Source: Escherichia coli
GTDB taxonomy: Bacteria > Pseudomonadota > Gammaproteobacteria > Enterobacterales > Enterobacteriaceae
DNA length: 64,000 bases
Strand: one strand, 5' to 3'
Assembly (NCBI RefSeq): GCF_003334405.1
Contig: NZ_QOWM01000014.1
Below the pieces are notes generated by a model. The model searched no databases. It saw only the letters and a program-made list of their open reading frames with translations, and was not told where the DNA came from. The position numbers were made by a program, and so were the translations under genes. This document shows, piece by piece, positions 21,781 through 26,519 of this stretch; position 1 is the first letter of the stretch, and every line of letters starts with the position of its first letter.

Positions 21781-22986
21781 ATGACGGAACAAGAAAAAAC
21801 CTCCGCCGTGGTTGAAGAGACCAGGGAGGCCGTGGACACCACGTCACAACCTGTCGCAACAGAAAAAAAGAGTAAGAACAATACCGCATTGATTCTCAGC
21901 GCGGTGGCTATCGCTATTGCTCTGGCGGCGGGCATCGGTTTGTATGGCTGGGGTAAACAACAGGCCGTCAATCAGACCGCCACCAGCGATGCCCTGGCTA
22001 ACCAACTGACGGCATTGCAAAAAGCCCAGGAGAGCCAAAAAGCCGAGCTGGAAGGCATTATTAAGCAACAAGCTGCACAACTTAAGCAGGCGAATCGTCA
22101 GCAAGAAACGCTGGCAAAACAGTTGGATGAAGTCCAACAAAAGGTCGCCACCATTTCCGGCAGCGATGCTAAAACCTGGCTGCTGGCTCAGGCCGATTTT
22201 CTGGTGAAACTCGCCGGACGGAAGCTGTGGAGCGATCAGGACGTCACGACCGCTGCAGCGTTGCTGAAAAGTGCAGACGCCAGCCTGGCGGATATGAATG
22301 ACCCGAGTCTGATTACCGTTCGTCGGGCAATTACCGATGATATCGCCAGCCTTTCTGCAGTATCGCAGGTGGATTATGACGGCATCATCCTTAAGCTTAA
22401 TCAGCTTTCAAATCAGGTAGATAACCTGCGTCTGGCCGATAATGACAGCGATGGTTCGCCGATGGATTCAGACGGTGAAGAGCTTTCCAGTTCCATCAGC
22501 GAATGGCGTATCAATCTGCAAAAAAGCTGGCAGAACTTTATGGACAACTTCATTACGATTCGCCGTCGTGATGACACCGCCGTACCGCTGTTAGCGCCAA
22601 ATCAGGATATCTATCTGCGCGAAAATATTCGCTCTCGCCTGCTGGTCGCAGCACAAGCTGTACCGCGTCACCAGGAAGAGACTTATCGCCAGGCGCTGGA
22701 GAACGTCTCCACCTGGGTACGTGCTTACTACGATACTGATGATGCCACCACCAAAGCGTTCCTCGACGAGGTGGACCAGTTAAGCCAGCAAAATATCTCG
22801 ATGGATCTTCCGGAAACCCTGCAAAGCCAGGCGATGCTGGAAAAACTGATGCAGACTCGCGTGCGTAACCTGCTGGCACAACCGGCAGCGGGGACAACGG
22901 AAGCTAAACCTGCACCTGCACCTGCACCTGCACCTGCACCTGCACCGCAAGCTGATACTCCGGCAGCCGCGCCGCAAGGAGAATAA
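21781..22986 (+). CDS. hemX: HemX membrane protein
   Basis: 401-aa ORF with one N-terminal TM segment, a coiled-coil-like Q/A-rich region and a C-terminal [11 protein letters not shown] tract. Confidence 0.88.
22909..22938 (+). repeat. in-frame hexanucleotide tandem repeat (CCTGCA)x5 within hemX
   Basis: Direct read of cctgcacctgcacctgcacctgcacctgca followed by ccgcaa; encodes (Pro-Ala)5. Confidence 0.85.
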
Positions 22987-22988
22987 CC

Positions 22989-24185
22989 ATGCTAAAAGTG
23001 TTATTGCTCTTTGTGTTGCTGATTGCGGGGATCGTGGTTGGCCCGATGATTGCCGGCCATCAGGGTTATGTGCTGATCCAGACCGACAACTACAATATCG
23101 AAACCAGCGTCACGGGCCTGGCGATCATATTGATTCTGGCGATGGTAGTGCTGTTTGCCATTGAGTGGCTACTGCGGCGGATCTTCCGCACTGGCGCGCA
23201 CACCCGTGGGTGGTTTGTCGGACGTAAGCGTCGCCGTGCACGTAAGCAGACCGAACAGGCGCTGCTGAAACTGGCGGAAGGCGATTATCAGCAAGTTGAA
23301 AAGCTGATGGCGAAAAATGCCGATCACGCGGAACAACCGGTGGTGAACTATCTACTGGCTGCCGAAGCCGCGCAACAACGTGGTGATGAAGCACGCGCCA
23401 ACCAACATCTGGAACGCGCAGCGGAGCTGGCCGGCAACGACACCATTCCGGTAGAAATCACCCGCGTACGTCTGCAACTGGCCCGTAATGAAAACCATGC
23501 TGCACGCCACGGCGTGGATAAGCTGCTGGAAGTTACGCCACGCCATCCGGAAGTATTACGTCTGGCGGAACAGGCGTATATCCGCACAGGTGCATGGAGT
23601 TCGCTGCTGGATATTATCCCATCAATGGCGAAAGCCCATGTTGGTGATGAAGAACATCGTGCAATGCTGGAACAACAGGCATGGATTGGCCTGATGGATC
23701 AGGCGCGTGCCGATAACGGTAGCGAAGGTTTGCGTAACTGGTGGAAAAACCAAAGCCGGAAAACGCGTCATCAGGTAGCGTTGCAGGTGGCAATGGCGGA
23801 ACATCTTATTGAATGTGACGATCATGATACTGCCCAGCAAATTATCATCGATGGCCTGAAACGCCAGTACGACGATCGCCTACTGCTGCCGATTCCTCGA
23901 CTGAAAACAAACAATCCGGAACAGCTGGAAAAAGTGCTGCGCCAGCAAATCAAAAACGTCGGCGATCGCCCGCTGTTGTGGAGCACACTGGGCCAGTCAC
24001 TGATGAAGCACGGAGAATGGCAGGAAGCATCGCTCGCCTTCCGCGCAGCGCTGAAACAACGTCCGGACGCCTACGATTACGCATGGCTTGCCGACGCGCT
24101 GGACAGACTGCACAAGCCGGAAGAAGCTGCAGCGATGCGTCGCGACGGTTTGATGTTAACGTTGCAGAATAACCCGCCACAGTAG
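22989..24185 (+). CDS. hemY: HemY (TPR-containing inner-membrane protein)
   Basis: 398-aa ORF MLKVLLLFVLLIAGIVVGPMIAGHQGY...; recognised HemY. Confidence 0.9.
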   Translation: MLKVLLLFVLLIAGIVVGPMIAGHQGYVLIQTDNYNIETSVTGLAIILILAMVVLFAIEWLLRRIFRTGAHTRGWFVGRKRRRARKQTEQALLKLAEGDYQQVEKLMAKNADHAEQPVVNYLLAAEAAQQRGDEARANQHLERAAELAGNDTIPVEITRVRLQLARNENHAARHGVDKLLEVTPRHPEVLRLAEQAYIRTGAWSSLLDIIPSMAKAHVGDEEHRAMLEQQAWIGLMDQARADNGSEGLRNWWKNQSRKTRHQVALQVAMAEHLIECDDHDTAQQIIIDGLKRQYDDRLLLPIPRLKTNNPEQLEKVLRQQIKNVGDRPLLWSTLGQSLMKHGEWQEASLAFRAALKQRPDAYDYAWLADALDRLHKPEEAAAMRRDGLMLTLQNNPPQ

Positions 24186-24440: not shown

Positions 24441-24863
24441 CGTTTATTATGCCACAGAGAATCGGGAAATAACATCCCTTAACACTTGTTATGAGATAAT
24501 TCTGTAATCCTCTTTGCTTCCTGAGTAATAACTTCCTGAGTGAATATTTAACCTGAGCTTGATCCTACACATACTTATTATGAATGATAAAATTCATTCA
24601 ATTAATAACACATATATTAATTGCCGTTAAAACTAAAAACAGCATCAATAATCAACGCGATATAATAAACCTGCCTTACATATCAACTGCGCCAGAGGTA
24701 GGATTGAAAACGCTCTCCTGATTTTCCAATTCATTTTCTGGATAAATAAATAATTTATTTTTGTCACTATTATTTATGTAATCATCCTGTCAGGGAGAGG
24801 GATCTCAATTATCAATGCTTAATTACGTCATCATTTTGATGACATGAAACCGGAGCATTTTGC

Positions 24864-26519
24864 ATGGAATTTTCGTTTTCACCCAAACGTCTTGTTGTTG
24901 CTGTCGCCGCCGCTCTTCCTCTCATGGCCAGCGCAGCAGATACCCCGTCAACTGCCACCGCACGCAAAGGCTTTGCCGGATACGATCACCCAAACCAGTA
25001 TCTGGTTAAACCGGCGACCACTATTGCCGACAATATGATGCCAGTAATGCAGCATCCGGCGCAGGATAAAGAAACCCAGCAGAAGCTGGCAGAACTTGAG
25101 AAAAAAACCGGTAAGAAACCGAATGTGGTTGTTTTCTTGCTGGACGATGTGGGCTGGATGGACGTCGGTTTTAACGGTGGCGGCGTGGCGGTGGGTAACC
25201 CTACACCAGATATCGACGCCGTTGCCAGCCAGGGGCTGATTTTAACTTCGGCGTATTCTCAACCAAGCTCTTCCCCAACCCGCGCCACCATTCTCACCGG
25301 ACAATACTCCATCCACCACGGCATTCTGATGCCGCCAATGTACGGGCAACCGGGCGGGCTGCAAGGGTTAACCACGCTGCCGCAGTTGCTGCACGATCAG
25401 GGCTACGTCACTCAGGCCATCGGAAAATGGCATATGGGGGAAAACAAAGAGTCGCAGCCGCAGAACGTTGGCTTTGATGATTTCCGTGGCTTTAACTCGG
25501 TGTCTGATATGTACACCGAATGGCGCGACGTTCACGTCAATCCGGAAGTGGCCCTGAGTCCGGACCGTTCTGAATACATCAAGCAATTACCGTTCAGCAA
25601 AGATGACGTTCATGCGGTGCGCGGCGGCGAACAACAGGCCATTGCCGACATTACGCCGAAATATATGGAAGATCTGGATCAACGCTGGATGGACTATGGC
25701 GTTAAGTTCCTCGACAAGATGGCGAAGAGCGATAAACCATTCTTCCTCTACTACGGCACTCGTGGCTGCCACTTCGATAACTACCCAAATGCGAAATATG
25801 CGGGTAGCTCTCCGGCACGCACCTCGTATGGCGACTGCATGGTGGAGATGAACGATGTGTTCGCTAATCTGTATAAAACACTGGAGAAAAACGGTCAGCT
25901 TGATAACACGCTGATCGTCTTTACCTCCGATAACGGACCGGAAGCCGAAGTACCGCCGCACGGACGCACCCCGTTCCGTGGTGCGAAAGGTTCGACCTGG
26001 GAAGGCGGCGTTCGCGTACCGACTTTCGTTTACTGGAAAGGGATGATCCAACCGCGTAAATCTGACGGTATTGTCGATCTGGCAGATCTCTTCCCTACCG
26101 CGCTGGATCTGGCAGGGCATCCTGGAGCGAAAGTGGCGAATTTAGTGCCGAAAACCACCTTTATCGATGGTGTGGACCAGACATCCTTCTTCCTGGGAAC
26201 AAATGGTCAGTCTAACCGTAAGGCCGAGCACTACTTCCTCAACGGTAAACTCGCTGCTGTGCGTATGGATGAGTTCAAGTATCACGTCCTGATTCAGCAA
26301 CCTTACGCTTATACCCAGAGCGGATATCAGGGTGGATTCACCGGCACAGTAATGCAAACGGCGGGATCGTCGGTGTTTAACCTCTACACCGATCCGCAGG
26401 AAAGCGACTCCATCGGCGTGCGCCATATTCCGATGGGTGTACCGCTACAGACCGAAATGCACGCGTATATGGAGATCCTGAAAAAATATCCACCACGCGC
26501 GCAGATTAAATCTGACTAA
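24864..26519 (+). CDS. aslA: arylsulfatase-family protein AslA
   Basis: 551-aa ORF with signal peptide and sulfatase-like region ([13 protein letters not shown]); recognised AslA. Confidence 0.9.

Follow-up and report, generated by a model that had tools for sequence, protein, structure and literature searches.

A variable CCTGCA hexanucleotide repeat in the 3′ part of Escherichia coli hemX is the MLVA locus CVN014 and very probably changes its length by nearly neutral replication slippage

CVN014 is one of the loci of the generic MLVA for E. coli and is included in the schemes GECM-7 and GECM-10 (PMC3519732, PMC8143711, citing Lindstedt et al. 2007; Lobersli et al. 2012). Within this generic typing scheme, CVN014 is described as the locus with the highest variability (PMC3877011). 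The locus is amplified with the primers GCAGCRGGGACAACGGAAGC and TCCCCGCAATCAGCAAMACAAAGA, and the allele is calculated as (product size − 111)/6 (PMC8143711 Table 1). Nine alleles in the range 4–15 with a Nei diversity of 0.83 have been described (PMC3519732), single-locus variants of ST131 carry the CVN014 alleles 2–11 (PMC3407997), and a frequency table of Swedish ESBL isolates comprises the alleles 2–12, with 13% for allele 2, 13% for allele 5, 20% for allele 6, 11% for allele 8, and 17% for allele 9 (PMC5217547). Hexanucleotide VNTRs located within coding sequences have also been described for O157, namely VNTR-19, which is also called TR7 or O157-19, in ORF Z3274 and VNTR-3 in Z0268 (PMC3321953), and serial passage yielded mutation rates of about 4e-5 to 1.8e-3 for O157 VNTRs at loci other than hemX (PMC3777172). 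A gene name for CVN014 is absent from the open-access typing papers cited here, and in the literature searched we did not find a link between hemX and MLVA or between hemX and a tandem repeat in E. coli.

The repeat which we describe here lies at the 3′ end of hemX within an E. coli DNA stretch of 64 kb, referred to as the window in the following. The relevant features of this region are:

21781–22986, plus strand: hemX open reading frame, 401 amino acids and stop codon (ORF call, Pfam, NCBIfam, RefSeq)
22168–22869, plus strand: conserved Pfam HemX domain, residues 130–363; the CCTGCA array is downstream and outside of this domain (Pfam)
22885–22904, plus strand: CVN014 "R" primer site GCAGCRGGGACAACGGAAGC, exact match and the sole one in the window
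22885–22974, plus strand: hypervariable C-terminal spacer of HemX rich in Pro, Ala, Glu, Thr, and Ser, residues 369–398, including the repeat (alignment, pLDDT)
22909–22944, plus strand: perfect (CCTGCA)6 encoding (Pro-Ala)6, the variable core of CVN014; 17 E. coli alleles differ solely in the number of units
22945–22950, plus strand: CCGCAA (Pro-Gln), a degenerate seventh unit which forms a fixed boundary on the 3′ side of the array (sequence reading)
22975–22986, plus strand: conserved CAA GGA GAA TAA encoding Gln-Gly-Glu-stop of HemX, with the hemY Shine–Dalgarno sequence AAGGAG at 22976–22981 (junction alignment)
22989–24185, plus strand: hemY open reading frame, 398 amino acids, starting 2 nt past the hemX stop codon (ORF call, RefSeq)
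23008–23031, minus strand: CVN014 "F" primer site TCCCCGCAATCAGCAAMACAAAGA inside hemY codons 7–15, exact match and the sole one in the window

Both a regular expression search and reading of the sequence give a perfect array of 36 bp, for which Tandem Repeats Finder reports the positions 22908–22946 with a period of 6, 6.5 copies, and 100% matches. It is the sole hexamer array with at least three units across the 64-kb window, and it lies in frame 0 of hemX, where it encodes the residues 377–388 of HemX directly after the residues EAK. A preliminary description of this DNA had already recognized a perfect in-frame CCTGCA tandem repeat in hemX with a degenerate CCGCAA unit directly 3′ of it, and in this respect it was right; it had however placed five units at 22909–22943, whereas there are six, and the end given for the array leaves out the last base of the sixth unit. 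The array is not a chance match because the probability that 30 bases copy the preceding hexamer somewhere in 64 kb is ∼64,000 × 4^−30, that is ∼6e-14 by our own arithmetic. When the single strands of the 36 nt array are folded, weak hairpins based on TGCA are predicted (−5.9 and −7.1 kcal/mol), and such hairpins may aid slippage but would not be required for it. Tandem Repeats Finder also detects an imperfect short tandem duplication at 24517–24546 (period 15, 1.9 copies, 93% matches), which sits between hemY and the next open reading frame (551 amino acids, 24864–26519).

The two CVN014 primers, for which no match in the window would be expected by chance, converge around the array and delimit an amplicon of 147 bp (22885–23031) corresponding to (147 − 111)/6 = allele 6. 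In ten other alleles in which both primer sites are exact, the formula of the typing scheme equals the number of counted units. At the DNA level there is no difference between CVN014 and the hemX array, as both have the same 6-bp unit, the same offset of 111 bp, and a high diversity. The hemX CCTGCA array is the MLVA locus CVN014, and the window carries allele 6. The repeat and its hypervariability are already known under this name and have been in routine use since 2007; the placement of the marker in the HemX tail and the comparison across genera given below are an annotation detail and not a new finding.

To follow the repeat within the species, a 281-bp query around the repeat was searched against 5,426 complete E. 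coli genomes, and the locus was found in all of them (5,426/5,426). The matched spans differ in 6-bp steps, with 257 bp for K-12 at the lower end and 329 bp at the upper end. The 5,426 genomes contain a total of 5,430 matching places, so that a few genomes have a second copy of the hemX–hemY junction, one of which is located on a plasmid. The allele spectrum was derived from three systematic samples taken with different query lengths, which after removal of duplicates cover 177 of the 5,426 genomes; two records were resolved from their sequence and the counts corrected accordingly. Each of these samples takes in the worst-ranked record, and rare odd alleles are thus somewhat over-represented in the following numbers of genomes (out of 177):

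0 units (tract deleted): 1
2 units: 31
3 units: 7
4 units: 15
5 units: 29
6 units: 24
7 units: 13
8 units: 17
9 units: 10
10 units: 9
11 units: 7
12 units: 5
13 units: 2
14 units: 3
15 units: 2
16 units: 1
20 units: 1

The repeat alleles range from 2 to 20 units and comprise 16 alleles with a Nei diversity of 0.89, and the spectrum obtained in silico is similar to that of the Swedish ESBL isolates (PMC5217547). In addition, 22 hemX loci were fetched for direct reading of the alleles. The 17 distinct E. coli records among them that were read base by base contain perfect and uninterrupted (CCTGCA)n arrays with 2–11, 13–16, and 20 units, and the CCGCAA border is unchanged 3′ of the array in all E. 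coli alleles read apart from the deletion allele of strain NCTC11023. The annotation gives hemX as an intact coding sequence in each of the 22 records.

These data bear out the expectation of the preliminary description that the length of HemX is polymorphic between strains, and with 16 alleles the array is clearly not fixed at five units. The 393 amino acids given there for the K-12 protein are also correct: hemX of K-12 has 2 units and is annotated with 1182 bp, and the difference of 401 − 393 = 8 amino acids corresponds to four Pro-Ala units. Whether the length always varies in multiples of 6 bp had been put forward there as a check, and this is the case for 175 of the 177 genomes. The exceptions are the strains NCTC11023 and N96, whose hemX genes are still in frame. 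The length differences among the sampled alleles are all multiples of 3 bp, and out-of-frame alleles were found in none of the 177 genomes, a sample of the 5,426 that rare out-of-frame alleles may escape.

In NCTC11023 (NZ_LS483297.1), the whole tract and the next 15 bp are lost, which amounts to an in-frame deletion of 51 bp relative to the window. The deletion joins AAACC to GGCAGCC and leaves GAAGCTAAACCGGCAGCC (near positions 520–545 of the fetched locus); from the sequence of the junction, the ends were apparently joined at a short CC/CCG microhomology. The resulting HemX has 384 amino acids and is annotated as intact. N96 (NZ_CM169999.1) carries three units; separately from this, 9 bp immediately 5′ of the array are deleted in frame, which changes AAGTTEAK to AAEAK. 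The 3′ end of hemX is divergent in this strain (93.5% identity over 951 bp), and the HemX tail is similar to that of Escherichia sp. MOD1-EC7003. N96 may belong to a cryptic Escherichia lineage or may have recombined with one. Within E. coli, the length of HemX extends from 384 amino acids with the tract deleted to 429 amino acids with 20 units. As this range is produced by a marker in a disordered tail, differences in the annotated length of HemX should not be taken as errors or as functional divergence.

The number of units differs even between genomes that are identical around the repeat. With identical flanks of 300 bp on each side, the window has 6 units and K-12 has 2, ARL09/232 has 14 and TCM_B_2 has 20, and LR1 has 13 and an O111:H8 strain has 16. 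Likewise, five O157:H7 genomes with identical flanks of 600 bp in total have 5, 5, 8, 10, and 15 units. Since identical flanks carry different numbers of units, the array changes faster than point substitutions arise nearby. Perfect arrays, steps of whole units, and different unit numbers on identical flanks are the signature of replication slippage, which we infer to be the mutational mechanism of the hemX array; the whole-unit polymorphism likewise speaks for the earlier suggestion of an in-frame hexamer prone to slippage. In addition, the arrays use one single codon pair, whereas the Ala-Pro-rich tails without an array, for example, in Klebsiella michiganensis, mix synonymous codons, which points to a process acting at the DNA level.

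Among the records labelled O157:H7, two have much smaller genomes than the others, which have 5.4–5.5 Mb: NZ_CP060946.1 ("O157:H7 str. EC10") with 4.79 Mb and NZ_CP124740.1 ("O157:H7 str. EDL933") with 5.14 Mb. The hemX flanks of EC10 represent a haplotype unlike the one of O157:H7, and the EDL933-labelled record shares the O157:H7 flank. The EC10 record may be mislabelled.

The assignment of the open reading frame is well supported. Residues 130–363 match the Pfam family HemX (PF04375) with an E-value of 3.8e-108, the NCBIfam model NF008173 reaches 719 bits at a cutoff of 313, and the annotation of all RefSeq E. coli genomes gives hemX followed by hemY in the matching region. The product name in RefSeq/PGAP and in NF008173 is "uroporphyrinogen-III C-methyltransferase". 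Pfam does not detect a methyltransferase domain in HemX, and this name looks like a historical misnomer. HemX has been described as a distant homologue of Mic60 lacking the mitofilin domain, and the Mic60 family has roles in membrane contacts (bioRxiv 10.1101/2022.06.14.496148). The gene is dispensable, as a strain lacking hemX could be cultured and assayed and had a lower gentamicin sensitivity than the wild type (PMC12282077). We found nothing in the literature on a role for the HemX tail.

No Pfam domain was found in HemX beyond residue 363. In an AlphaFold structure predicted from an alignment of 77 sequences, which is of moderate quality overall (mean pLDDT 62.7), the last helix comprises the residues 348–366, and the residues 368–401 are without secondary structure and have pLDDT values of 30–36. 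The tail is probably periplasmic. The preliminary description had regarded the repeat as a flexible Pro-Ala linker. Flexibility is plausible for such an unstructured tail, but the term linker is unsupported because the tract sits in the C-terminal tail with 13 residues after the (Pro-Ala)6 tract until the end of HemX; neither Pfam nor the structure prediction gives a second folded domain after it, as would be needed for an interdomain linker.

Downstream, the HemX tail is bounded by codons that double as the ribosome-binding site of hemY, and the distance from the end of the array to the Shine–Dalgarno sequence AAGGAG is 31 nt. According to RNA folding, the Shine–Dalgarno sequence and the hemX stop codon pair with approximately codons 5–9 of hemY (GUUAUUGCUCUUUG) and form a stem of ∼14 bp between 22972 and 23018. 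As the Shine–Dalgarno sequence is predicted to be fully paired, this model suggests that the translation of hemY is coupled to the translation of hemX. In the thermodynamic model, the pairing of the Shine–Dalgarno sequence and the local stem are identical for 0 to 20 units, and thus no effect of the copy number on the ribosome-binding site of hemY is predicted. Most of 76 junctions from Enterobacteriaceae contain this stem as well. However, compensatory double changes were found in none of the 12 pairs when these junctions were aligned, and without covariation the conservation of the stem may just reflect the constraints imposed by the coding sequence and the Shine–Dalgarno sequence.

For the comparison beyond E. 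coli, we took hemX from 80 Enterobacteriaceae species with one genome per species, and 77 sequences entered the alignment. The invariant columns of HemX reach up to the motif RVRNL-AQ ending at Q367, and P368 is nearly invariant. Between P368 and Q399, there is no conserved column in the 77 sequences, and then Q399 is again invariant and G400 and E401 are conserved in at least 90% of the sequences. As the codons of this QGE end contain the hemY Shine–Dalgarno sequence, its conservation may come from the translation of hemY and not from the function of HemX. The spacer between the residues 368 and 399 is rich in Pro, Ala, Glu, Thr, and Ser, and its length and sequence differ strongly from genus to genus. 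Apart from E. coli with its variable number of units, CCTGCA arrays are present in the following genomes:

Escherichia albertii: 6 units
Escherichia sp.: 7 units
Citrobacter sp. NCU1: 10 units
Citrobacter sp. Awk 4: 14 units
Citrobacter sp. R56: 13 units
Raoultella ornithinolytica: about 3–4 units

The arrays of Citrobacter and Raoultella are found at the homologous site of hemX (tails near positions 2640–2757 of the fetched loci). In the other genera and in two further Escherichia lineages, the latter with one or two units, the expanded array is absent; short Ala-Pro runs with mixed synonymous codons are encoded there. Judging from these sequences, the low-complexity tail of HemX is the conserved property and the microsatellite appears to be derived at the DNA level, having arisen or expanded in a few lineages. 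The expansion in Citrobacter and Raoultella could go back to a common ancestral proto-repeat or have occurred in parallel, and it could reflect a shared mutational hotspot or selection for a long Pro-Ala tail.

How could the length variation arise and why would it persist? We suggest that, owing to the identical DNA copies, the nascent and the template strand may misalign by whole units during replication so that units would be gained or lost. Since one unit consists of two codons, each such event would add or remove one Pro-Ala pair and keep the reading frame. The tract lies in a tail of biased composition which is predicted to be unstructured; the conserved domain ends before it, and 30 nt separate it from the QGE-stop sequence with the ribosome-binding site of hemY. 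The length changes therefore appear to be tolerated and to behave as nearly neutral. The finding that 0–20 units are tolerated in one species and that the number varies within one serotype also points to near-neutral variation of the tail length.

The variation might on the other hand serve a function, although we found no sign that the copy number affects function, neither in the literature nor in the folding of the hemX–hemY junction, and the NCTC11023 strain without any unit keeps a hemX gene annotated as intact. The Pro-Ala tract could be a selected spacer whose length sets the periplasmic reach of the conserved C-terminus of HemX and is tuned in each lineage. A spacer indeed sets the conserved APQGE end apart from the domain in all 77 Enterobacteriaceae sequences, the array may have independently reached its 10–14 units in some Citrobacter, and the distant homology to Mic60 places HemX in a membrane-contact family (bioRxiv 10.1101/2022.06.14.496148). 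We nevertheless regard such a spacer as improbable: on identical flanks the O157:H7 genomes have 5, 8, 10, and 15 units, which is too fast for plausible adaptive tuning, the number varies from 0 to 20 inside one species, the codons of the hemY Shine–Dalgarno sequence explain the conservation of QGE equally well, and the units of an array are identical as DNA and not just conserved as protein. The broader idea that the Pro-Ala length is functional, by altering the reach or the interactions of the C-terminus of HemX as a Mic60-like inner-membrane protein or the translational coupling to hemY, and that the array is a selected graded tuning knob, is in our opinion quite improbable. If it were true, it could also account for the parallel expansions in Citrobacter and Raoultella, and any effect of the copy number on the function of HemX or HemY would make the locus a case of a microsatellite that tunes function gradually and without frameshifts; our results contain no hint of this. 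Taken by itself, a modulation of hemY expression by the copy number, via the mRNA structure of the junction or via the arrival of ribosomes at the coupled hemY start, is very improbable. The array does end just 31 nt upstream of the hemY Shine–Dalgarno sequence, the ribosome-binding site is predicted to lie in a stem, and hemY may need the ribosomes that finish hemX. On the contrary, the repeat takes no part in this stem, and neither the stem nor the unpaired probability of the Shine–Dalgarno sequence changes between 0 and 20 units in the thermodynamic model. The classic stalling motif consists of consecutive prolines, which Pro-Ala repeats do not contain.

Highly mutable simple repeats within genes are typical for contingency loci, and the array could by analogy be considered a phase-variation switch for hemX or hemY. 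This can be excluded because slippage of a 6-bp unit never shifts the frame and all sampled alleles are in frame, with 177 of 177 differing by multiples of 3 bp; moreover, hemX is an intact coding sequence in 22 of 22 records. It is just as hard to conceive that the polymorphism is merely apparent and caused by errors of sequencing or assembly at a low-complexity site. Draft assemblies can indeed miscount simple repeats, but the genomes compared here are complete assemblies and the differences always consist of whole units in perfect arrays. An artefact is excluded since the sizing of PCR fragments in many laboratories has given a very similar allele spectrum (PMC3407997, PMC3519732, PMC3877011, PMC5217547). 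Thus, we consider it highly probable that the hemX feature is the CVN014 VNTR, a (CCTGCA)n array which gains and loses units by slippage and whose variation is nearly neutral.

Among other repeats, the hexanucleotide VNTRs in coding sequences of O157 resemble the hemX array. The unit of O157-19/TR7, which we take to be GGTGCA, would be a rotation of the reverse complement of CCTGCA. Both repeats are however not identical. A primer ascribed to VNTR-19 is absent from the window, and VNTR-19 is located in the EDL933 open reading frame Z3274 (PMC3321953 Table 1), which from its map position we infer to be different from hemX. Like the hemX array, VNTR-19 and VNTR-3 have 6-bp units inside open reading frames, differ by complete units between members of one clonal serotype, and serve as markers in epidemiology (PMC3321953). 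The difference is that other genes are concerned.

At the protein level, Ala-Pro-rich segments are found in the hinge of OmpA, in the linkers between the lipoyl domains of the pyruvate dehydrogenase E2 subunit, and in the X-Pro repeats of TonB, where they join two folded domains. These segments are rich in Pro and Ala, of low complexity, and non-globular as is the HemX tail, which is probably periplasmic. In contrast, the HemX tract is followed by 13 residues in which no domain was detected. We know of no length variation between strains in these segments that would be like the one of HemX. As for the DNA, the repeats in contingency loci of Haemophilus, Neisseria, Campylobacter, and similar bacteria cause frameshifts or changes in promoter spacing and in this way switch expression. 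These loci and the hemX array presumably share their mechanism of mutation, slipped-strand mispairing within a short and perfect tandem repeat, but with its unit of 6 bp the hemX array changes the length of the protein only.
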